From a virus (taxonomy: Duplodnaviria; Heunggongvirae; Uroviricota; Caudoviricetes): a stretch of DNA of 64,000 nucleotides. The stretch lies in the IMG/VR virus record IMGVR_UViG_3300042940_001739. One strand, written 5' to 3'. Position 1 is the stretch's first letter. Each line of letters begins with the position of its first letter. The notes beneath the pieces were generated by a model, which saw only the letters and a list, made by a program, of their open reading frames with translations, did no database searches and was not told the DNA's origin. Shown piece by piece: positions 7,142 to 63,792 of the stretch. Both the position numbers and the translations under genes were made by a program.

Positions 7142-8262
7142 TTTTTCATTTCTTGTTTATATAATTGATCCAAATCTTGTAACAATTGTTGTTGTATTTG
7201 TTCTGGCGTTGCTGCTGTTGCTGAATCGTATGTATAATTATATCCTGCTGCAACACCTAATGCGCCTCCTACTGGAGCAGCAATCTTTGCAAAATTAAGT
7301 AATCCTGATTTTACATATGATTTTGCCTTTGATGCAGCAACTTGTTTTGCACTTTTAGCAATTCCTGTTTTTAAGAACACTTCAATTTGTTGTTTGATAA
7401 AGATATTATTTTTAGCTAATTCATTGATAACTTCCATTTCAACAGCTGAAAATTTCACAGCCGTAGTTTTTGCTATACTCAATTTTTTAGCTAATAGTGA
7501 CATTCCTTTTTTGCCTAATTGATTCATTCCAGGTATTTTTTGTACAAGTTTACCAATACCTGGCATCACTGAAAATAAAGCAACAAGTCCAGCTGTTTTA
7601 GGATCGCCCTCTTTTCGATATTCATTTGCATCAATTAATCCAATACCTGCTGACACTGCCCATCCTATAACCGGGAGAAATGCTGTGCCGATTTGTAATA
7701 CTGTTAAAACTGTATGTCCATTATCTTTCCACCAAGCATTCAATTGTTCCCCAGCTGATAATGAACTCCATTTAGACCAAGCTTGTTTATATGGACCATT
7801 CATCAATTTAATAAGAGCTTTTTCTTCTCCTATACTAGTTTCACCAGCTTTCCATTTATCATATATACTCGGATCGTTTTGTGCTACTGTTCTAAAGTCA
7901 TTCCATGGAACTATTTTTTTAATTGTCCAGCCCCATTGGTTTGCAGGTATAAATTGTAATAAATAACTAGCAATCATTAATCTCGGATTGATATCTAAAA
8001 AACTAGTTAGATATTCACCCATCCCACGACCGCCAGTTAATTTTTGTAATTCTTTATTAACTTCAATATATTGTTTGGTATTTTTTATTGCTTGTATTGC
8101 TGGCATTACTTTTTCTTCATCATCTGAAAAAGTGCCTTTTGCATCATATATTTGTTGAGCAATTCGCTGTGCATTAAATGCCCCTTTTATTGCGTTAGGG
8201 TCAGATGGCCCTTGTCGCATTACAGCTCCTTGTTCATTGAATAATGATTTTAATTGTATCAT
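7138..8262 (-). CDS. Leader-bearing protein with pre-toxin-like hydrophobic helices (putative ejected/membrane-active protein)
   Basis: MIQLKSLFNE leader; TVLTVLQIGTAFLPVIGWAVSAGIGLID, AGLVALFSVMPGIG and IAAPVGGALGVAAG helices; ATATTTATT on minus strand at 8266-8274. Confidence 0.65.
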   Translation of the reverse strand: MIQLKSLFNEQGAVMRQGPSDPNAIKGAFNAQRIAQQIYDAKGTFSDDEEKVMPAIQAIKNTKQYIEVNKELQKLTGGRGMGEYLTSFLDINPRLMIASYLLQFIPANQWGWTIKKIVPWNDFRTVAQNDPSIYDKWKAGETSIGEEKALIKLMNGPYKQAWSKWSSLSAGEQLNAWWKDNGHTVLTVLQIGTAFLPVIGWAVSAGIGLIDANEYRKEGDPKTAGLVALFSVMPGIGKLVQKIPGMNQLGKKGMSLLAKKLSIAKTTAVKFSAVEMEVINELAKNNIFIKQQIEVFLKTGIAKSAKQVAASKAKSYVKSGLLNFAKIAAPVGGALGVAAGYNYTYDSATAATPEQIQQQLLQDLDQLYKQEMKK

Positions 8263-53328: not shown

Positions 53329-54551
53329 TGCCTAGATTGAATAGACAAAATATTGATCGTAAAACAAATAAACCAGAGTTAATTCGTACTGAAGGATTAA
53401 CGCCTGATTTATTGTTAAATCGTGCATCACAAATACGACGTGATGACGATGTTGTACGATCTCAGCAACGCACGGTATATGATATTGATTATGCAATTAA
53501 GTGGTTTCTTGATAATGATATACGACCACAAATAACTGCAGACGAACAATTAATTTCAGTTCCGACAATTTTTGCTAATGGTGAGAAGTGGGATAATGTA
53601 AGACGTTTAGGATATTTGCGTGATGAAAAAGGTATGTTACAATCTCCAGTAATCATGATAAAACGTAATAGCGTTGCAGAACGAGATTCACAAAAAACTT
53701 TAGATGTTAATCGTCCACAGTCTGCAAACCAATTGATTTATAAAAGCAAGTACAATGACAGGAATCGTTATGAAGACGAACTATTCCCAATTCCAACAAA
53801 TCAAAATCAACCATCAGAACAAATATATATTGTAGATATTCCTAAATATGTTACTTTAGAATATGAATTATTGATATGGTGTGATTTCACAGAACAAATA
53901 AACGAATTGATTGATCAAATACTGCCATATGGTAGATTTTCTTGGGGAAATGATGGAAATAAATTTCCAACTTCTATAGGTTCAATTAGTACCGAGACAG
54001 TTAATACCGTTGGCGAAGACCGTCTAGTACGAGCTACAATTCCACTAACTGTGCAAGGCACATTATTGTCAGCACAAGAAAATAGATTGTCAACTATAAG
54101 AAAAATGTATTCAATTAAAAAATTATCATTTGATACAGTGATTGATATCGATACAGATTTATTTAGTAGTACAATTGTACCAAATCAATTATTACAAGCA
54201 CAGAATATTATTTCAAGTGGCGGCAGTGTATTAGTATCAAGTGGTGGCTCTTCTACAACGGTAGATGCAGCAACAATGGGTTACTTGACACAATTAACAG
54301 ATCAGTTTGCAACATATTCATCTGCAACCACAGTAACAATTGCTGCGACTGCGAAAATTAATCCAACTACACTACAAACTGCTAGCAAAAATGAATTTAA
54401 TGTTTATATGAACGGACAATATATTGACAAGATTGCATATAATTGGACACCTAGTGATATGGCGACACAAACAATTGTATTTGATACTGCATTGCTAGGA
54501 TATAGCATCGAATCTCAAGACGTAATTGTAGTAAATGGGAGATGGGCATAA
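53328..54551 (+). CDS. Tail terminator/completion protein (gp15-like)
   Basis: DIDYAIKWFL, QSPVIMIKR, PKYVTLEYELLIW..FTEQINELI. Confidence 0.65.
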   Translation: MPRLNRQNIDRKTNKPELIRTEGLTPDLLLNRASQIRRDDDVVRSQQRTVYDIDYAIKWFLDNDIRPQITADEQLISVPTIFANGEKWDNVRRLGYLRDEKGMLQSPVIMIKRNSVAERDSQKTLDVNRPQSANQLIYKSKYNDRNRYEDELFPIPTNQNQPSEQIYIVDIPKYVTLEYELLIWCDFTEQINELIDQILPYGRFSWGNDGNKFPTSIGSISTETVNTVGEDRLVRATIPLTVQGTLLSAQENRLSTIRKMYSIKKLSFDTVIDIDTDLFSSTIVPNQLLQAQNIISSGGSVLVSSGGSSTTVDAATMGYLTQLTDQFATYSSATTVTIAATAKINPTTLQTASKNEFNVYMNGQYIDKIAYNWTPSDMATQTIVFDTALLGYSIESQDVIVVNGRWA

Positions 54552-56092
54552 TGACAAGACAATTAAGACCAGGCCAACTACGTACGGGTTCATTGTATGA
54601 TATTTCATCTAGTTTTGCATTAACAGCATCATATGCGTTAACAGGCTCTGGGTTTCCGTATAGCGGATCGGCTGTAATTACTGGAAGTTTATTAGTGTCA
54701 GGATCAGGCATAACAGGCTCATTATTTGGGACTGCTTCATTTGCAACAACAGCATCATATGCATTAAATGTACCAGTAACAGCATCATATGCGTTACAGG
54801 CATTATCTAGTTCATTTGCAGCAACAGCCTCATATATTGACACATTATATAGTAGCAACTATACTCAATCATTTAGCAATTCATCTACATGGACTGTTAT
54901 TCATAATTTAGAATCGCGATATGTTTTAGTACAAACGTATGACACTAATTATGATGAAATGATTCCGCAAAATATTGATTTAACAGATTCTAATACTGTA
55001 ACAATTTCGTTTCCAACTTTAGAAAGCGGAACAGCAGTTGTCACTGTCGGCGGAGCATTACAAAATCCATCGCCACAATCATCTTCATATGCATTAACAT
55101 CAACTTCAGCATCTTATGCATTAACAGCATCACACGCATTAAATGTAGGAGGTGCATCAGCAACAGCATCGTATTTAAACACATTGACACAAGATGTAAC
55201 ACTTAATGGTACATTTTATAACAATGCAAAAAATATTTATTTAGATTCAACAGCAACATTTCCATTTATAATTGGATATGGACCAGCTACTCCAAATATT
55301 ACAACAAATTTGATTGTAGGCACTGCAGCATTAACTCAAAACACAACCGGATATAATAATACTATATTCGGCCATGCTGCAATGCAAGTTAATCAAACAG
55401 GTTATATAAACACTGCAATCGGAAATGGAGCATTGGGTAGCAATGTAGCAGGATGGGCAACAACAGCAGTTGGTAATCAAGCAGCAGGAGGCGGTAATGT
55501 ATATAATAGTGTCGCAACAGGTTATCAAGCGTTATACAACGGCGGAAGCAATAATGTAGCATTTGGATACCAAGCAGGTAAAAATGCTAGTAACACGTCT
55601 CAGCGCAATGTTTATTTAGGATTTAGAGCAGGTACAACTAGTTCTGTAACAGAGTCTGATAAATTATACATACATAATGATTACGGCACTCCATTAATTG
55701 GAGGTGATTTTTCAACAAGAAATGTTACTATTACTGGTAATTTAACTGTTACTGGATCATTAATTGTTACGGGTTCAACTCAAAGTAATGTAGTAGCATT
55801 ATCAATTTCATCTAATACAGCATCTATAGATTTATCAAGATCGAGTTTTTATACATTACAATTAGTTGCAGGAACAACCACATTTATAAACCCTTCAAAT
55901 ATACGCCCAGGCGTTACAAGTACATTGCTTATATCAACGACAGGTAGTGCAACCGTTTCGTTTCCTACATCAGTAAAACAACCATCTGGATCAGCATATA
56001 TCCCAACTACAACTACTAGTGTTGATATATTAACATTTATTTCATATGATGAATCTACATTATATGTTGCTAACGTTAAGAATATGATATGA
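54551..56092 (+). CDS. Tail fibre/spike-like protein
   Basis: Probable ATG at 54551; TASYA repeats, WTVIHNL motif, beta-helix N.A.G..AL repeats. Confidence 0.75.
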   Translation: MTRQLRPGQLRTGSLYDISSSFALTASYALTGSGFPYSGSAVITGSLLVSGSGITGSLFGTASFATTASYALNVPVTASYALQALSSSFAATASYIDTLYSSNYTQSFSNSSTWTVIHNLESRYVLVQTYDTNYDEMIPQNIDLTDSNTVTISFPTLESGTAVVTVGGALQNPSPQSSSYALTSTSASYALTASHALNVGGASATASYLNTLTQDVTLNGTFYNNAKNIYLDSTATFPFIIGYGPATPNITTNLIVGTAALTQNTTGYNNTIFGHAAMQVNQTGYINTAIGNGALGSNVAGWATTAVGNQAAGGGNVYNSVATGYQALYNGGSNNVAFGYQAGKNASNTSQRNVYLGFRAGTTSSVTESDKLYIHNDYGTPLIGGDFSTRNVTITGNLTVTGSLIVTGSTQSNVVALSISSNTASIDLSRSSFYTLQLVAGTTTFINPSNIRPGVTSTLLISTTGSATVSFPTSVKQPSGSAYIPTTTTSVDILTFISYDESTLYVANVKNMI

Positions 56093-57149: not shown

Positions 57150-58277
57150 ATGGCAGAATGGAAAAAGGTTGTTGTCTCGGGCAGTAACATTTCACAATTA
57201 AATAATGATTCTGGATATTTAATAGCTGCGGGCTTGCCGAACACATTTGCTACGATGTCAATCAATGGCGTAAATGTAATTACAGACGCACAGGCAGACA
57301 CATTAACATTCGCATCATCCTCAGGAGCAGGTTTAGCAATCGTAGGAGATGCTGGTGCGGATTCTATTACATTTACATTAGGCGCTATTCCTAATTCTAG
57401 TTTAGCTAATTCAACTATATCCGGTAAAGCTCTAGGAACTAACTTAGATTCATTAACAGCGGGAGCTGGATTATCTGGTACAGCATATAACGGATCTGCG
57501 GCACAAACATTCTCAGTTAACTCTGGGTCAATGTTGCCTTACTATTCTAGTTCAATTTTTGCAACTGTATCAGGTGATATCACAATATCTTCAGCAGGTG
57601 TAGCTTCTATTGCAGCTAACTCAGTAGCATTAGGAACTGATACAACAGGCGATTATGTTGCAAATTTAGGTACAGGTACAGGTGTTTCGATCGGTTCAAA
57701 TACAGGCGAAGGAAGTCAGCCAACAATTGCAGTTAATTATGGTTCGTCATCAAACACAGCAGTTCAAGGTAACACAACAATATCTTTAACTGGTACATCA
57801 AATGAAGTTGAAATTACAGGTACAACGGCACAAGCATTAGGAGCAGGTCCGTCATATACAATTGGATTACCTAATAATGTTACTATAGGAAATAACTTAA
57901 CAGTAACTGGCGATTTATATGTTAATGGTACAACTACAACTGTTAACACTGCGGACTTATATGTTGAAGATAAATTTATCTTATTAGCTTCAGGATCTGC
58001 AACAGCAGGTGATGGGGGTATTATAATTGATAGAGGTTCTGATGCAGCAGGCAATATTGCATTCGGTTATGATTCAGCAACAGACCGTTGGGGATACCAA
58101 AATGGATTAACTGATTCAACCAATGCGATTACAATTGGGACAGATGGTAATTCAGCATTTGCAGCATATGTATTTACTGAGACAGCACATACTTCAACAA
58201 AACCAACCACAGGTGAATTTGTAACAGCTGGTTCAATTTATACAAATACAGATGGTACAATTTGGATGTATGCATAA
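57150..58277 (+). CDS. Tail fibre-like protein
   Basis: MAEWKKVVVSGS N-terminus; IPNSSLANS; LTVTGDLYVNGTTTTVNT...VEDKFILL motif. Confidence 0.75.
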   Translation: MAEWKKVVVSGSNISQLNNDSGYLIAAGLPNTFATMSINGVNVITDAQADTLTFASSSGAGLAIVGDAGADSITFTLGAIPNSSLANSTISGKALGTNLDSLTAGAGLSGTAYNGSAAQTFSVNSGSMLPYYSSSIFATVSGDITISSAGVASIAANSVALGTDTTGDYVANLGTGTGVSIGSNTGEGSQPTIAVNYGSSSNTAVQGNTTISLTGTSNEVEITGTTAQALGAGPSYTIGLPNNVTIGNNLTVTGDLYVNGTTTTVNTADLYVEDKFILLASGSATAGDGGIIIDRGSDAAGNIAFGYDSATDRWGYQNGLTDSTNAITIGTDGNSAFAAYVFTETAHTSTKPTTGEFVTAGSIYTNTDGTIWMYA

Positions 58278-58769: not shown

Positions 58770-60458
58770 ATGCCCTCATGGAAAAAAGTCATAGTATCAG
58801 GTTCTGATGCCTCTCTGAATTCAATAACTACCCCTGCAGGTACAATCAACAGTATTACAGCATCATATGCAACAAATGCTTTAACTGCATCATATACTCC
58901 CGCAATTGCAGGTACAGACAATTATATACCTAAATTCAATGGTTCAAGTGCACTAGAAAATAGTGTAATGTATGATGATGGTACTAATATTGGTATTAGT
59001 ACTACTAGTCCTACAGAAAAACTTACAGTATCTGGTAATATTTCAGGTAGTGCTAAATTAACCATAGGAACATCCCACACCAACTCAGGAACATTATCCT
59101 CGATTGCCGGTGGTACTGGAAATATAGCATCAGGAAACTGTTCATTTATCGGTGGTGGTCAACAAAATACTGCATCTGGTGATACTTCAACAGTTAGTGG
59201 TGGATATCGCAATACAGCATCTGGTTATTATTCAACAGTAGGTGGTGGTGCTCAAAACACAGCATCTTGTAATAATTCAACAGTAGGTGGTGGTTTTTTT
59301 AACACAGCATCTAATTATAATTCAACAGTAGGTGGTGGTGTTTTTAACACAGCATCTGGTAATCGTTCAACAGTAGGTGGTGGATATAATAATATAGCAT
59401 CTGGTTATTATTCAACAGTAGGTGGTGGTGGAGGTAACACAGCATCTTGTACTTATTCAACAGTAGGTGGTGGATCTGGCAACACAGCATCTGGTTATTG
59501 TTCAACAGTTAGTGGCGGATATTGCAATACAGCATCTGGTTATTGGTCAACAGTTAGTGGTGGATATTGCAATACAGCATCTAGTACTAATTCAACAGTA
59601 GGTGGTGGTAATACTAACACAGCATCTAGTTTTAATTCAACAGTAAGCGGAGGTACATACAACACAGCATCTTGTAATAATTCAACAGTAGGTGGTGGTT
59701 TTTTTAACACAGCATCTGGTTATAGTTCAACAATAAGCGGAGGTGCAAACAACACAGCATCTAGTTATAATTCAACAGTAGGTGGTGGTGGAGGTAACAC
59801 AGCATCTAACTCATATGCAACAATAAGTGGTGGTCGTTCAAACACAGCATCTGAGTATAGTTCAACAGTAGGTGGTGGATATAATAATATAGCATCTGGT
59901 TATTATTCAACAGTAGGTGGTGGAGTTTTTAACACAGCATCTGGTACTCGTTCAACAGTAGGTGGTGGAAGAACTAATACAGCATCTAGTATTAATTCAA
60001 CAGTTAGTGGTGGATATTGCAATACAGCATCTGGTTATTTATCAACAATAAGTGGTGGTCGTTCAAACATAGCATCTGGTTATAATTCAACAGTTAGTGG
60101 TGGATATTGCAATACAGCATCTAGTTATTGGTCAACAGTTAGTGGTGGTCATTCAAACACAGCTTCTAATTATTTTTCAACAGTTAGTGGTGGAAAATCT
60201 AACACAGCATCTGCTAATTATTCAACAGTTAGTGGTGGTTATACCAATACTGCTTCAGGAACATATTCAGGTATTTTAGGTGGGTGCGGAAATACTGCAT
60301 CATGTGCCTGTTCGTTTATAGTGGGTACACAGATTACAACAGATAGAGTTTGCACAACATTTGTAAATAATCTTTCTATTAAAAATGTCCCAACATCTGC
60401 AGCTGGTTTGCCTGCTGGTTCTGTTTGGTCTAATGGTGGAGTTTTAAATATTGTCTAA
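58770..60458 (+). CDS. Tail fibre/adhesin with YadA-head-like 15-aa repeats
   Basis: MPSWKKVIVSGS N-terminus; 27 x S(T)V(G/S)GGxxNTASxxx; C-terminal PTSAAGLPAGSVW. Confidence 0.85.
   Translation: MPSWKKVIVSGSDASLNSITTPAGTINSITASYATNALTASYTPAIAGTDNYIPKFNGSSALENSVMYDDGTNIGISTTSPTEKLTVSGNISGSAKLTIGTSHTNSGTLSSIAGGTGNIASGNCSFIGGGQQNTASGDTSTVSGGYRNTASGYYSTVGGGAQNTASCNNSTVGGGFFNTASNYNSTVGGGVFNTASGNRSTVGGGYNNIASGYYSTVGGGGGNTASCTYSTVGGGSGNTASGYCSTVSGGYCNTASGYWSTVSGGYCNTASSTNSTVGGGNTNTASSFNSTVSGGTYNTASCNNSTVGGGFFNTASGYSSTISGGANNTASSYNSTVGGGGGNTASNSYATISGGRSNTASEYSSTVGGGYNNIASGYYSTVGGGVFNTASGTRSTVGGGRTNTASSINSTVSGGYCNTASGYLSTISGGRSNIASGYNSTVSGGYCNTASSYWSTVSGGHSNTASNYFSTVSGGKSNTASANYSTVSGGYTNTASGTYSGILGGCGNTASCACSFIVGTQITTDRVCTTFVNNLSIKNVPTSAAGLPAGSVWSNGGVLNIV
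59097..60311 (+). repeat. Coding tandem repeat, 27 x 45 bp
   Basis: Constant blocks TCAACAGT(A/T)(G/A)GTGG and AA(C/T)ACAGCATCT alternating with 6-nt and 9-nt variable blocks. Confidence 0.9.
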
Positions 60459-60513
60459 AACAATTTGGATATTTAAAAAATAATTCTTATATTGTAGTTA
60501 TATTAAATTTGTT

Positions 60514-61410
60514 ATGGAAAAAAAATATTCAATTTTTCACATTGAAGGTGGTTTAGGAAAACATATTGCAGCAACTGCTGTTGCACGTTGTATTAAGAAA
60601 AATCATCCCGATCGTGAACTTATCATAGTTTGTGCTTACCCACAACCCTTTTTAAATTTAGATTTTGTGTCTCGTGTATATAGAATAGGTACTACACCAT
60701 ATTTCTATAAAGATTATATTGAAGAAAAAGATTCACTTATATTCAAACACGAACCGTATTTCACAACAGAACATATCCATAAAACACTTCCACTAATTGA
60801 AAATTGGTGCAAGTTATATAATTTGAAATATAATGGTGAACAACCTGAAATTATATTTAACAATAGAGAATTACAAAAATATCGCCAAATATGGCGTTCT
60901 GAAAAACCTGTATTTGTAATCCAATCAAATGGAGGTCTGTTAGCTACAGACAGTGGTTTACCATATAGATGGACTAGAGATATTCCATTTAACGTTACTC
61001 AAGCAATAGTAAATCGTTATAAAGAAGATTACACAATTTATCAAATTACTCGCCCAGGATCCCCAGTAGCACCAGGAGCAATTCAAGTTTCACATGAAAT
61101 GACTTCAATGGAACTACTTTCTGTATTGTTGTACTCAGAAAAACGATTATTAATTGATTCTTCTTTACAACATGCCGCAGCTGCTTTAAATTTACCTTCA
61201 ACTGTATTGTGGGTTGGAACATCACCAAAAGTATTTGGATATGATCTACACGATAATATTGTTGCTGAAATTCCTGAAAATCAAAAACTTCCAGATAGTT
61301 ATTTCTTTGACTATGATTTTGAAGGTCAAGTTCATGACTATCCATTTATAGAAGAAGAAATATTTGATTTAGATACAATTACAAAATCACTAACAAGACA
61401 AAGTTTATAA
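60514..61410 (+). CDS. Glycosyltransferase (GT-B, GT9-like)
   Basis: IEGGLGKHIAATAV N-terminus; LLIDSSLQHAAAALNLPSTVLWVGT. Confidence 0.7.
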   Translation: MEKKYSIFHIEGGLGKHIAATAVARCIKKNHPDRELIIVCAYPQPFLNLDFVSRVYRIGTTPYFYKDYIEEKDSLIFKHEPYFTTEHIHKTLPLIENWCKLYNLKYNGEQPEIIFNNRELQKYRQIWRSEKPVFVIQSNGGLLATDSGLPYRWTRDIPFNVTQAIVNRYKEDYTIYQITRPGSPVAPGAIQVSHEMTSMELLSVLLYSEKRLLIDSSLQHAAAALNLPSTVLWVGTSPKVFGYDLHDNIVAEIPENQKLPDSYFFDYDFEGQVHDYPFIEEEIFDLDTITKSLTRQSL

Positions 61411-62225
61411 TGCAAAAGTTATTTTTTCAATCATCCTTGCCTAGAGCAGGATCAACCCTATTACAAAATATTATAGGACAAAACCCCGATTTTTATGTTA
61501 CACCAACCTCTGGTGTTCTAGAACTCGTTTATGCTGCACGTAACAACTATTCAACCTCAGCTGAATTCAAAGCACAAGATTCTGATTTGATGCGAGAAGG
61601 ATTTAAACAATTCTGCCATGATGGCGTTACTGGTTTTTTTAAAGCAGTAACAGACAAACCATATGTAATGGACAAAAGTAGAGGATGGGGCTATCATAGA
61701 GATTTCCTAGATTTCTTCTACCCAGATCCAAAAATTGTATGCATGATTCGGGATCCTAGAGCTATATTTTCTTCTATGGAAAAAAACTTTAGAAAAAACC
61801 CCGAACAAGACAAAGGTATAGTTAACCATGCAGAGATGGCAGGTGTAACCACTGAACAACGCATTGATACATGGGCAGCAGGTGTTCCGGTAGGAATGTC
61901 ACTACAGCGTTTATATCAAATAGTAAAAGAAGGAAATGACCAAAAAATGCTATTTGTAAAATATGAAGATCTAATGAAAAACCCACAAGGCGAAATGGAT
62001 CGAATCTACAAATATTTAGATATTCCTTCATATACCCATAACTTTGATAATATCCAACAAATTACCCAAGAAGATGATGAAATATATGGTGCATATGGAG
62101 ACCATACAATTAAACCAAAATTAACCCCAGTAAAACCAGATTGGAACGAAGTACTAGGAAAAAGTGCAGCTGCATGGATTCGTAGTAATTATACATGGTT
62201 CTACGAATATTTCGGATACGTATAA
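61410..62225 (+). CDS. PAPS-dependent sulfotransferase
   Basis: SSLPRAGSTLL 5'-PSB loop; IVCMIRDPRAIFSS 3'-PB; FVKYEDL. Confidence 0.9.
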   Translation: MQKLFFQSSLPRAGSTLLQNIIGQNPDFYVTPTSGVLELVYAARNNYSTSAEFKAQDSDLMREGFKQFCHDGVTGFFKAVTDKPYVMDKSRGWGYHRDFLDFFYPDPKIVCMIRDPRAIFSSMEKNFRKNPEQDKGIVNHAEMAGVTTEQRIDTWAAGVPVGMSLQRLYQIVKEGNDQKMLFVKYEDLMKNPQGEMDRIYKYLDIPSYTHNFDNIQQITQEDDEIYGAYGDHTIKPKLTPVKPDWNEVLGKSAAAWIRSNYTWFYEYFGYV

Positions 62226-62246
62226 TATATATAAATAAAAGACAAT

Positions 62247-62567
62247 ATGACAACAGGATGGACAATTCCCGGTATGAAACGCTTAACCGATGATGGTTTA
62301 GTAGTACAAGCAACTTATATCTTTCAAGCACAGGAAGGTAATTTTATTAATAGAAAAGTAGGTGATATGACATTTACTGGAAGTGTAGATGAGCCTGGCT
62401 ATATCCCCTATGAGGATCTTACTCAAGATGATGTATTGAATTGGGTATTTACTAGATTAGGAGATGAAAAAGCAGCTATTGAAGCAGATGTTACTTTAGC
62501 TACTGAAACACAATATTCCGCGTCATTAAATAATCCATACTCAAACGGAGTTCCTTGGAACAATTAA
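62247..62567 (+). CDS. Small tail-associated hypothetical protein
   Basis: YIPYEDLTQDDVLNWV...GVPW motif typical of phage fibre-region proteins. Confidence 0.6.
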   Translation: MTTGWTIPGMKRLTDDGLVVQATYIFQAQEGNFINRKVGDMTFTGSVDEPGYIPYEDLTQDDVLNWVFTRLGDEKAAIEADVTLATETQYSASLNNPYSNGVPWNN

Positions 62568-62585
62568 TACAAAATTTAAATAGTT

Positions 62586-63056
62586 ATGATTTATTGGTTT
62601 ACCGGACAGCCTGGAGCAGGTAAAACTGTTTTAGCAACTGCTCTAAAACAAGAAATGGACAATACTTTCCACATTGATGGAGATGATTTACGTGCCATTT
62701 TTGACAACAAAGATTATAGTGAAACTGGTAGAAGAAAAAATATTGAGCTAGCGCAACAACTAGCTCATTTTCTTTACAATAAAGGAAACAACGTAGTTGT
62801 ATCCCTTGTTTCACCATACAAAGATCAACGTGAAGAATTTAAAACAAAACTTGGAGATTCAATCAAAGAGTTTTATGTTCACACTACTGAAATACGAGGA
62901 CGAGAAAATTTCCATGTTGAAAACTATCAACAACCAACAGAAAATTATCTTGATATAGATACTACAAATATTTCCATTGAAGAATGTTTAAACAAAATTA
63001 AAAGTTATGCAAAATTGGACCAAGAAAGTACACGTACAATCATCCCTACAATCTAA
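62586..63056 (+). CDS. cysC: Adenylyl-sulfate (APS) kinase
   Basis: WFTGQPGAGKT P-loop, IDGDDLR, GRRKNI, VSLVSPY. Confidence 0.88.
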   Translation: MIYWFTGQPGAGKTVLATALKQEMDNTFHIDGDDLRAIFDNKDYSETGRRKNIELAQQLAHFLYNKGNNVVVSLVSPYKDQREEFKTKLGDSIKEFYVHTTEIRGRENFHVENYQQPTENYLDIDTTNISIEECLNKIKSYAKLDQESTRTIIPTI

Positions 63057-63411
63057 ACCAAACCAATACTCTTTATTTATTGGTCGTTGGCAACCATTAC
63101 ATGATGGGCATAAAGCTCTATTCCAACAAGCTTTAGATGAAGGAAAAAATGTTTGGATTGCAATCCGAGATGTTGAAACAACTGAATCAAACCCATTTGA
63201 TGCTCAAGAAGTACTTAAAAATATTGAAACCGAATACAAAGAATTATGCGATCAAGACAGAGTTAAAGTTAGCATCATCCCTGACATATGTTCAGTGGAG
63301 TTTGGTAGAGGAGTTGGCTATGATATCATTGAACATATACCTCCCACACAGATAGCTGAAATATCAGCAACAAAAGTAAGAGAACAAATGCGTAAAGAAG
63401 GTAAACTATGA
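63007..63411 (+). CDS. HIGH-family nucleotidyltransferase (cytidyltransferase/NadM-like; possible minimal ATP sulfurylase)
   Basis: FIGRWQPLHDGH, GRGVGY, ISATKVR. Confidence 0.8.
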   Translation: MQNWTKKVHVQSSLQSKPNQYSLFIGRWQPLHDGHKALFQQALDEGKNVWIAIRDVETTESNPFDAQEVLKNIETEYKELCDQDRVKVSIIPDICSVEFGRGVGYDIIEHIPPTQIAEISATKVREQMRKEGKL

Positions 63412-63629
63412 GAGAAGATAAAAAACATGCAATGGTCCGCCATATATTAAAAACACTTTCTTATCGTATTTTAGGTACATTAACAACAGTGTTTGTTGCT
63501 TATTCATTAGGTGTATCACTCGAATTATCTTCATTGCTTGGTGTAGGAGAATTATTAATTAAACCTGTATTATATTTTTTCCATGAACGCATTTGGTACA
63601 AATATATTCGAATAGGAAATAAAAAATAG
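63408..63629 (+). CDS. DUF2061 membrane protein
   Basis: RHILKTLSYRILGT...KPVLYFFHERIW. Confidence 0.85.
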   Translation: MREDKKHAMVRHILKTLSYRILGTLTTVFVAYSLGVSLELSSLLGVGELLIKPVLYFFHERIWYKYIRIGNKK

Positions 63630-63678
63630 CATTTTTCCGGTTTCTCATATATTTATAAATAAATAAAAACATTTAAAA

Positions 63679-63764: not shown

Positions 63765-63792
63765 AGCGAGTTAGAAATGGCTCGCTTTTTTT
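63765..63792 (+). terminator. Intrinsic terminator
   Basis: AGCGAG-10 nt-CTCGCT followed by T tract. Confidence 0.8.

Follow-up and report, generated by a model that had tools for sequence, protein, structure and literature searches.

Sulfate activation is known from systems in which a HIGH-superfamily adenylyltransferase and a P-loop APS kinase act in two steps to supply PAPS, as in the bifunctional PAPS synthases (human PAPSS1/2 and the Aquifex aeolicus Sat-CysC fusion, 2gks). In rhizobia, NodP and NodQ provide PAPS beside the sulfotransferase NodH that uses it for Nod-factor sulfation, that is, for decoration rather than assimilation. Two further families bear on the locus examined here: the GT9 heptosyltransferases, which include the adhesin O-heptosyltransferase TibC (4rap/4rb4), and the archaeal and NadM-type NMN adenylyltransferases (1f9a, 2qjo). 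We analyzed a window of 64,000 nucleotides from an uncultured lake phage (IMG/VR record IMGVR_UViG_3300042940_001739), where an earlier note, made from the sequence alone, had described a glycosylation and sulfation cluster next to the tail-fibre genes. Inspection of the open reading frames confirmed that observation, with all six genes present on the + strand, tightly packed between 60514 and 63629, and directly following Ser/Thr/Gly-rich repeat proteins at 54542-56092, 57150-58277 and 58770-60458. The features are as follows.

58770-60458, + strand: repeat fibre/adhesin-like protein, 562 aa, with NTAS..STVGGG repeats of about 15 residues rich in Ser, Thr, Gly and Tyr (UspA1_rep 3e-28); context and candidate acceptor only.
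60514-61410, + strand: predicted GT9-fold (GT-B) glycosyltransferase-like protein, 298 aa.
61410-62225, + strand: PAPS-type sulfotransferase, 271 aa.
62247-62567, + strand: DUF7936 protein, 106 aa, a lineage-specific insertion outside the conserved module.
62586-63056, + strand: APS-kinase homologue with a shortened lid, 156 aa, proposed to convert APS and ATP to PAPS.
63007-63411, + strand: minimal HIGH nucleotidyltransferase (NT), 134 aa, proposed to convert ATP and sulfate to APS and PPi.
63408-63629, + strand: DUF2061 two-helix membrane protein, 73 aa, a partner of sulfate activation.
63765-63786, + strand: terminator-like hairpin followed by a T run, a probable 3' end of the transcription unit by consensus match only.

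To learn whether this grouping recurs, which the earlier note had set as a test of its reading, we searched IMG/VR for NT relatives and recovered 495 contigs, and the grouping is not chance. In the 87 loci examined in detail, the kinase is next to NT in 82 and DUF2061 in 80, such that these three genes form the conserved core, while the sulfotransferase is present in 67 and the GT9-like gene in 61. Gene order varies, with the GT9-like gene moving between the two ends of the block, and the GT9-like gene always occurs with the sulfotransferase, whereas the trio also occurs without the GT9-like gene. About 15 of the 87 loci have the trio without a sulfotransferase within 8 kb; of five such records, two hold one elsewhere on the contig and three, which are fragments, do not. 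In contrast, the DUF7936 gene is found in only 5 of the 87 loci, and the label of a small tail-type protein given to it by the earlier note is unsupported.

Each protein was next compared with its closest families. The sulfotransferase scores 85.4 bits against Sulfotransfer_3 (PF13469, 8.7e-24, cut-off 27) and 55.2 bits against Sulfotransfer_1 (PF00685, 8.8e-15, cut-off 22), and also matches phrog_27463 (2.5e-40). Its 5'-PSB-like PRAGST motif (residues 11-16) and 3'-PB-like RDPRAIFSS motif (residues 113-121) align with TPST1, which is among its best solved relatives (3e-6) together with StaL and HS 3-OST, whereas a NoeE model scores 7.9e-10, far below its cut-off. The 298-aa protein has no Pfam hit of its own, scoring 11.7 bits (E 0.16) against PF01075 with a cut-off of 22, although 10 of 20 family members match PF01075, the best at 3.1e-5. 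Its AlphaFold2 model (pLDDT 82) is closest to GT9 structures, where the top 31 Foldseek rows are GT9 entries except one and the leading hits are 3tov (2e-10, TM 0.67), 1psw (WaaF), 2h1f (WaaC) and 4rap/4rb4 (TibC), with E-values of 2e-10 to 1e-5. The identification of a GT-B glycosyltransferase therefore holds at the fold level. The protein shares with this family a C-terminal DSS.QHAAAAL-type motif (PF01075 positions 190-224) and, like TibC, its gene lies next to a Ser-rich repeat adhesin-like protein; however, identity is only 11-13%, and its N-terminal motif reads GGLGK where WaaC has a catalytic Asp.

The kinase scores 56.5 bits against PF01583 (4.2e-15, cut-off 21.1), but only over residues 2-100 and profile positions 4-109 of 152, and 64.6 bits against TIGR00455 (9e-18, cut-off 138.7). 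The best solved hit is the APS kinase 8a8h (7.5e-11). Alignment with four full-length APS-kinase domains, and the pairwise alignment to 8a8h, show that the P-loop, DGD, R36, R49, N52, S73, P77 and R82 are kept, positions which in APS-kinase structures hold Mg-ATP and APS. The lid segment (about RDPKGLYKKAR.GEI..FTGID) is incomplete, with deletions of 14 and 4 residues, or about 18 lid residues relative to canonical domains. The kinase is homologous to the APS-kinase domain of the fused PAPS synthases but, in contrast to these, the phage kinase and NT are separate genes that overlap by 50 nt, and a DUF2061 membrane protein is a constant third partner.

NT belongs to the HIGH nucleotidyltransferase superfamily, with its Rossmann-like fold, scoring 29 bits against CTP_transf_like (PF01467, 1.4e-6, cut-off 21), and carries the motifs GRWQPLHDGH, IRD, NPF, GRGVGYD and ISATKVR, in which H32, H35, S120, T122 and R125 are invariant. 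It is not a member of the Sat family to which the earlier note alluded, as it reaches 21.6 bits against PF01747 (cut-off 24.3) over 64 residues only and is a single predicted domain (AlphaFold2 pLDDT 90) with a core of about 115 residues and no PUA-like or other Sat domains. Its fold neighbors are NMNAT (Z 9.9), PPAT (9.7) and ATP sulfurylase 1v47 (7.6), such that by sequence and fold it is nearer to archaeal or NadM NMNAT and to PPAT than to ATP sulfurylase. Nevertheless, NT also fails as an NMN adenylyltransferase, where the archaeal/NadM models (TIGR01527, NF002243 and PRK05379) give 24-35 bits against cut-offs of 127-449, with matches covering residues 15-94 only and PDB phmmer E-values of 0.004 or worse. 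Relative to 1f9a and 2qjo (Z 9.9 and 8.8-9.0; 24-27% identity), NT shares the GRxQPxHxGH, NPF and ISxTxxR motifs but has a family-specific RD and GRxVGY(D/E) signature, was never seen with a Nudix domain and has a sulfur-specific gene context.

To address what NT may do, we examined its fusions, neighborhoods and distribution in cellular genomes. Relatives 43-57% identical are fused to full-length APS kinases (E 1e-40 to 1e-69) in both orders; one such fusion lies between a Wzx flippase and a sulfotransferase, and another, in a phage, is followed by DUF2061. An APS kinase is fused or adjacent in 53 of 80 bacterial or archaeal loci, and in a Nitrospiraceae genome NT stands alone directly after CysH. 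Four closed chromosomes have NT, one APS kinase, a CysH (ECGxH motif, next to a PiT-like permease) and a bona fide NadD, but no PF01747 and no CysD. In that phylum, 78 of 120 genomes have strong NT, 18 have Sat and none has both (Fisher p 3e-10, confounded by phylogeny), and five further genomes with the NT-kinase pair show no Sat and no CysD-strength hit. Several loci do not fit as simply. A cysD-cysN pair lies right beside an NT-APS kinase fusion in an Acidobacteriota MAG and a Nitrospiraceae genome has both Sat and NT, and NT is therefore not always the only sulfurylase and could have another role. One phage fuses NT to a DHHA1-type domain with no sulfur genes nearby, and Sano-type and DLP6 phages have kinase-NT fusions without a sulfotransferase nearby.

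DUF2061 (PF09834) is matched at 57.9 bits (1.4e-15, cut-off 23.1) over profile positions 1-51 of 52, with R11, H12, K15, R20, E48, K52, H59, E60, R61 and W63 invariant. In some alphaproteobacteria, CysN-DUF2061 and CysN-CysC-DUF2061 open frames occur beside CysD, and a DUF2061 gene lies in the Mesorhizobium nodH-nodP-nodQ locus. The phage block resembles that locus in encoding a private PAPS supply next to the sulfotransferase predicted to use it, although NodPQ is of the GTP-dependent CysD/CysN-CysC type where the phage would use the mini NT, and the rhizobial acceptor is a lipochitooligosaccharide.

We read the block as a late, fibre-linked phage operon that makes PAPS from sulfate and ATP and uses it on the spot, with a probability of about 0.7. 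In this view NT, a member of an undescribed family that stands in for Sat or CysDN, adenylylates sulfate to APS, the kinase phosphorylates APS to PAPS, DUF2061 works with this pair as a membrane tether or a path for sulfate, and the sulfotransferase passes the sulfate to an acceptor that the GT9-fold protein helps to build or decorate. The gene content, co-occurrence and association of DUF2061 with sulfate activation are shown by our analysis, whereas the sulfurylase activity of NT is inferred from fusions, neighbors and complementary distribution alone, that of the kinase from homology and conserved substrate-binding motifs, that of the sulfotransferase from family membership, and the role of DUF2061 is a guess. 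Against this reading stand the score of NT below the Sat cut-off and its closer likeness to NMNAT and PPAT, the loci in which Sat or CysDN accompanies NT, the fusions without sulfur genes or a sulfotransferase nearby, the loci with the trio but no sulfotransferase within 8 kb, and the missing part of the kinase lid. The interpretation in the earlier note, namely a self-contained pathway for sulfated products rather than cysteine synthesis, is partly supported, where the activation-plus-sulfotransfer module, its co-occurrence across hundreds of phage contigs and the sulfurylase reading of the HIGH nucleotidyltransferase gain support while the choice of acceptor does not resolve. Of the fibre, host surface and DNA offered by that note, only the link to fibre genes has some support, in that a fibre-like gene lies just upstream in 42 of 55 sulfotransferase-bearing loci against 1 of 10 without, and homologues of the 562-aa repeat protein end within 2.5 kb upstream of the module in many relatives. 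A glycan or residue on the neighboring Ser/Thr/Tyr-rich fibre is tentatively favored, by a narrow margin, over a host envelope glycan, with other acceptors less likely and nothing pointing to DNA.

Of the alternatives, the one that survives best, though unlikely, is that NT is catalytically idle or regulatory, an APS-binding or oligomerisation partner of the kinase, with APS coming from the host's own ATP sulfurylase so that the phage boosts only the second step. The Acidobacteriota and Nitrospiraceae cases above allow this, and an inactive sulfurylase-like domain occurs on an APS kinase in Thiobacillus denitrificans (entry 3cr8 appears at Z 6.2). However, HxGH, the RD, NP and GRxVGY positions and ISxTxxR are invariant or nearly so across 28 diverse members, as expected of an active enzyme, NT stands alone beside CysH, and genomes with CysH and CysC but neither Sat nor CysD need some sulfurylase.

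Slightly less likely is an HldE-like pair in which the kinase and NT make an ADP- or NDP-activated sugar for the GT9-fold transferase while the sulfotransferase relies on host PAPS. GT9 enzymes use ADP-heptose, NT shares its cytidylyltransferase-like Pfam family with HldC (5x9q, Z 5.8), and in one record, L067, a small HAD phosphatase sits between the kinase and NT among GT2, GT10-like and DegT genes with no sulfotransferase nearby. This contrasts with the kinase being a P-loop APS-kinase homologue with the APS-binding positions kept rather than a PfkB sugar kinase, with the fusions of NT relatives to canonical APS kinases beside sulfotransferases or CysH and of DUF2061 to CysN or CysC, with the GT9-like gene never occurring without the sulfotransferase, and with the presence of a sulfotransferase elsewhere in the L067 record.

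A NadR-like NAD+ salvage pair, with NT as an NMN adenylyltransferase and the kinase of nicotinamide-riboside type, for example to counter NAD-depleting defences and unrelated to the sulfotransferase, is very unlikely. The best sequence and fold matches of NT are NadM, archaeal NMNAT and NadR, the motifs noted above are shared, phages carry genes annotated as NadM-type, and the Sano and DLP6 fusions sit among DNA-metabolism genes. Yet all NMNAT models score far below cut-off (30-35 bits against 127-397), NT is about 35-50 residues shorter than NMNATs with the part after the third strand replaced by the GRGVGY loop, the kinase hits APS-kinase models and not NadR, the bacterial genomes tested have their own NadD, and the fusions and neighbors are sulfur-specific. 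An ordinary auxiliary module boosting host sulfur assimilation towards cysteine is equally improbable, since, although phage cysC and cysH are reported as auxiliary genes and the kinase is cysC-like, no PAPS or APS reductase and no PAPS_reduct domain was found in the window or in five related phage records, including a complete 343-kb genome rated 100% complete, a sulfotransferase co-occurs in 67 of 87 loci and the block sits at the end of the fibre operon.

We found no paper that describes this module. More speculatively, and at somewhat less than even odds, NT may be the founding example of a third, unrecognised class of ATP sulfurylase, a minimal HIGH nucleotidyltransferase derived from the NMNAT/PPAT branch that replaces Sat or CysDN in Dadabacteria-type genomes, many uncultured bacteria and archaea, and hundreds of phages, with DUF2061 as its dedicated membrane partner, possibly a sulfate conduit. 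With this kit a phage would sulfate its own glycosylated tail fibre, a virion modification not described for phages. If NT is an ATP sulfurylase, pathway reconstructions would wrongly score many genomes as unable to activate sulfate, here 78 of 120 genomes of one phylum plus CPR, DPANN, Marinimicrobia and Omnitrophota loci, and DUF2061, a widespread orphan membrane family, would be tied to sulfate activation. A private PAPS supply wired to a sulfotransferase and a GT9-like enzyme behind the fibre genes suggests sulfated glycans or residues on virions or on the infected cell surface, which would bear on host recognition, exclusion of other phages and sulfur turnover in lakes. A kinase-NT pair of about 290 residues would also be a compact PAPS-regeneration tool for enzymatic sulfation.

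Freshwater metatranscriptome assemblies from two studies hold 95-100% identical contigs over 62272-63632, which is weak evidence because DNA carry-over is not excluded. The terminator-like hairpin downstream of the block has a 9-bp stem and a TTTTTTT tail. The DUF7936 protein (PF25590, 3.3e-14) belongs to a widespread family of hypothetical phage proteins, with homologues in cyanopodoviruses and roseophages.

To place the gene block in context, we first characterized the stretch of DNA in which it lies. The window is part of a T4-like myovirus at about 32% GC, encoding a gp6-like baseplate wedge, an SbcCD-like nuclease, a large terminase, a portal and a gp23-like capsid protein. The capsid protein is closest to that of Flavobacterium phage vB_FspM_immuto (57%), and the DNA is found in lake-water and freshwater metagenomes of several studies. 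These data indicate an uncultured freshwater phage, probably of a Bacteroidota host, whereas a marine host, which we considered at first, was rejected on the basis of the lake-water and freshwater runs. Inspection of the region reveals three Ser/Thr/Gly-rich fibre-type genes followed by six packed genes and a terminator-like hairpin:

54542-56092, Ser/Thr/Gly-rich fibre-type gene
57150-58277, Ser/Thr/Gly-rich fibre-type gene
58770-60458, Ser/Thr/Gly-rich fibre-type gene
60514-61410, + strand, 298-aa protein with a predicted GT9 fold
61410-62225, + strand, 271-aa sulfotransferase
62247-62567, + strand, 106-aa DUF7936 protein
62586-63056, + strand, 156-aa APS-kinase homologue
63007-63411, + strand, 134-aa HIGH nucleotidyltransferase (NT)
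63408-63629, + strand, 73-aa DUF2061 protein
63765-63786, terminator-like hairpin

A scan for sigma-70-type promoters found no more sites than in shuffled sequence. The observation made in the earlier note, that these six genes lie consecutively behind the fibre genes, is confirmed.

Each gene product was next examined individually. The 271-aa protein is a clear sulfotransferase (PF13469 8.7e-24, PF00685 8.8e-15) with the PAPS-binding PRAGST and RDPR...S motifs. Its best solved relatives are tyrosylprotein sulfotransferase 1, StaL and heparan-sulfate 3-OST, all of which are weak matches, so that the acceptor class cannot be read from sequence. The 298-aa protein has no Pfam hit of its own, and a profile of its family searched against PDB sequences returned no hit. 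In contrast, an alignment of 20 sequences gave a confident structural model (pLDDT 82), whose best structural matches are almost all GT9 heptosyltransferases, including the adhesin O-heptosyltransferase TibC, and ten of the 20 homologues touch PF01075 weakly. This GT9-like family has an invariant GGLGK near the N-terminus (window 60514-60580, protein residues 12-16). GT9 enzymes carry the catalytic Asp (xxGD) at that place, and the chemistry of the family may therefore differ from that of classical heptosyltransferases. The 106-aa protein is DUF7936, which is widespread among cyanopodoviruses and roseophages as a hypothetical protein but present in only 5 of 87 related loci. It is an insertion rather than a part of the module, and nothing shows it to be a tail protein, as the earlier note had labeled it. 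The 156-aa protein is an APS-kinase homologue in which the P-loop, DGD, R, R..N and S..P..R positions are all kept, but about 18 lid residues are deleted. The 134-aa NT carries GRWQPLHDGH and ISATKVR motifs, passes only the generic PF01467 cut-off and fails the ATP-sulfurylase and NMNAT models. The 73-aa protein is DUF2061.

To address whether the grouping is real, we examined the occurrence of these genes in related phages. NT relatives occur on 495 IMG/VR contigs and in thousands of metagenomic proteins. In the 87 loci examined, the kinase is adjacent in 82, DUF2061 in 80, the sulfotransferase in 67 and the GT9-like gene in 61. The GT9-like gene sits upstream of the sulfotransferase in some lineages and downstream of DUF2061 in others, indicating that selection is keeping the set together, which contrasts with mere synteny. 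In loci with the kinase, NT and DUF2061 only (trio-only loci), a motif scan found no sulfotransferase within 8 kb, although a search of the whole record then found one in 2 of 5 records. Natural variants seen in several samples (related loci L004:7432-8001 and L005:2304-2825) keep the GT9-like gene, NT and DUF2061 but have only the first half of the sulfotransferase and no kinase. This looks like a deletion and suggests that the module can decay.

The kinase and NT reading frames overlap by 50 nt, with NT in the +1 frame, and we considered whether a programmed frameshift joins them. This was rejected. The overlap has a different frame offset in relatives (+1 in related locus L001, +2 in L003), some relatives do not overlap at all, and true fusions exist elsewhere. 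That is to say, these are two separate genes and not a frameshifted fusion. Complex prediction with the kinase, NT and DUF2061, taking DUF2061 as partner, returned a score of 0.00 and no call, which is not evidence either way.

To learn more about the role of NT, we compared its fold and sequence with those of the HIGH superfamily, in which both place it. Structural comparison gave Z 9.9 for archaeal NMNAT, 9.7 for PPAT, 8.8-9.0 for NadM and 7.6 for ATP sulfurylase 1v47, while a Foldseek search of NT against PDB returned nothing at E <= 0.001. These comparisons do not decide what NT does, whereas its context does, albeit by inference. A full-library search found 1118 cluster representatives with many fusions, where NT domains 38-57% identical to that of the window are joined to full-length canonical APS kinases (E 1e-40 to 1e-69) in both orders. 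One is joined to a DHHA1-type domain, namely a 432-aa phage protein in related locus L092 (4051-5349, protein P0378), where the DHHA1-type domain (weak hit) is C-terminal and the gene lies among ThyX, Zincin and nuclease genes, with no kinase or sulfotransferase nearby; DHH-family PAP phosphatases exist. Three fusions have informative neighbors. One NT-APS kinase fusion sits between a Wzx flippase and a sulfotransferase, and one APS kinase-NT fusion, in another phage, is followed by DUF2061. The third lies beside cysD-cysN and sulfotransferase-glycosyltransferase fusions, which calls for caution because a canonical sulfurylase coexists there. Of 80 bacterial and archaeal loci, 53 have an APS kinase fused or adjacent, and in a Nitrospiraceae genome NT follows CysH directly. 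In contrast, the cultured phages Xylella phage Sano (gp35, L006:5584-6321) and Stenotrophomonas phage DLP6 (AAY80_227, L007:5590-6321) carry single-chain lid-less kinase-NT fusions (phrog_10255, annotated 'kinase') among DNA-metabolism genes, with no sulfotransferase nearby and no Pfam DUF2061 downstream.

Given these associations, we next asked whether NT occurs where an ATP sulfurylase is otherwise missing. Four closed chromosomes labeled Thermodesulfobacteriota or Dadabacteria were examined. Each has NT, one canonical APS kinase, a bona fide NadD above cut-off and one PAPS_reduct protein, which is CysH by its ECGxH and C-terminal CxxC motifs and lies next to a PiT-like permease. None of the four has PF01747 or CysD. 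These genomes need an ATP sulfurylase, do not need an extra NMNAT, and have NT. In these closed Dadabacteria-type chromosomes the PiT-like permease gene directly precedes cysH (L175:6058-7785, genome G001), while NT and cysC lie elsewhere, such that the sulfate pathway is scattered across the chromosome. Across 120 genomes of that phylum, 78 have strong NT, 18 have Sat and none has both (Fisher p 3e-10), although the pattern follows clades and so counts as few independent events. Five more genomes with NT-kinase pairs showed no Sat and no CysD-strength hit, where most are incomplete MAGs.

DUF2061 was examined in the same manner. In 301 alphaproteobacterial genomes the family occurs in 53, mostly alone. 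Four long open frames join it to the C-terminus of CysN or CysN-CysC, directly after CysD, and a preprint records a DUF2061 gene inside the nodH-nodP-nodQ locus of Mesorhizobium. A search for longer DUF2061 proteins from the phage query returned only phage forms of 140-154 aa, and an Atlas look-up gave only DUF2061 clusters. Most relatives encode such a 140-154-aa protein, with an extra N-terminal domain of about 78 residues that looks beta-rich and matches no family (related loci L013:8402-8848 and L003:8392-8832), whereas the window (63408-63629) and its nearest relatives (L009, L010) have only the 73-aa membrane part. The phage proteins keep a set of charged residues (R11, H12, K15, R20, E48, K52, H59, E60, R61) in and around two hydrophobic helices, which is more than a passive anchor would need. 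Whether DUF2061 tethers the enzymes or conducts sulfate is a guess.

We then considered where the activated sulfate might go. No PAPS_reduct domain was found in the window or in five related phage records, of which one is rated 100% complete (343 kb) and one 80% complete, arguing against assimilation. The sulfotransferase-bearing form of the module follows a fibre-like gene on the same strand in 42 of 55 loci with enough upstream sequence, in contrast to 1 of 10 for the trio-only form (p 1e-4, relatedness not corrected). A GT9-fold enzyme, as predicted here, beside a Ser-rich repeat protein recalls TibC and its adhesin. This makes the fibre a reasonable candidate acceptor, but a host envelope glycan is not excluded, and nothing supports DNA, the third acceptor that the earlier note had offered.

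Taken together, a PAPS supply plus sulfotransfer is very likely, and the identity of NT as the ATP sulfurylase is likely. The gene content, the co-occurrence of the genes, the fusions and the distribution of NT against Sat are shown by the sequence analysis, whereas APS formation by NT, PAPS formation by the kinase, sulfate transfer and the part played by DUF2061 are inferred from homology and context. The interpretation in the earlier note is thus supported in part, in that a self-contained sulfation pathway is very likely, whereas of the acceptors it offered only the fibre has some support. Literature searches returned no description of a mini ATP sulfurylase, no paper that describes the NT family as a sulfurylase or assigns DUF2061 a role, and no phage module combining PAPS supply with a sulfotransferase. 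The one useful item was the record of the Mesorhizobium nod locus.

Other explanations are less well supported. An idle, regulatory NT is possible, if unlikely, where CysDN or Sat coexist with it, but this does not fit the invariant catalytic motifs or the genomes lacking any other sulfurylase. An HldE-like ADP-sugar route for the GT9-like enzyme, also unlikely, is suggested by the trio-only locus L067, where a 117-aa HAD phosphatase (7646-7999; PNKP-3'-phosphatase-like, weak hits) splits the kinase from NT next to GT2, GT10-like and DegT genes. This phosphatase could be a PAP 3'-phosphatase or part of a sugar pathway. The ADP-sugar route is outweighed by the sulfur-specific fusions, and the L067 record has a sulfotransferase elsewhere. 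NAD salvage fits only the weak homology.

Finally, freshwater metatranscriptome assemblies from two studies contain contigs 95-100% identical over 62272-63632, one of which bridges the kinase/NT overlap. This is weak evidence of expression, because DNA carry-over cannot be excluded, and the RNA contigs cover mainly this stretch, such that the parts of the block that they leave uncovered say nothing. DNA contigs of a related freshwater population show several joints that skip 400-1000 bases inside the repeat fibre gene (window 59200-60340), which would fit either repeat-number variation or assembly collapse in the repeats.
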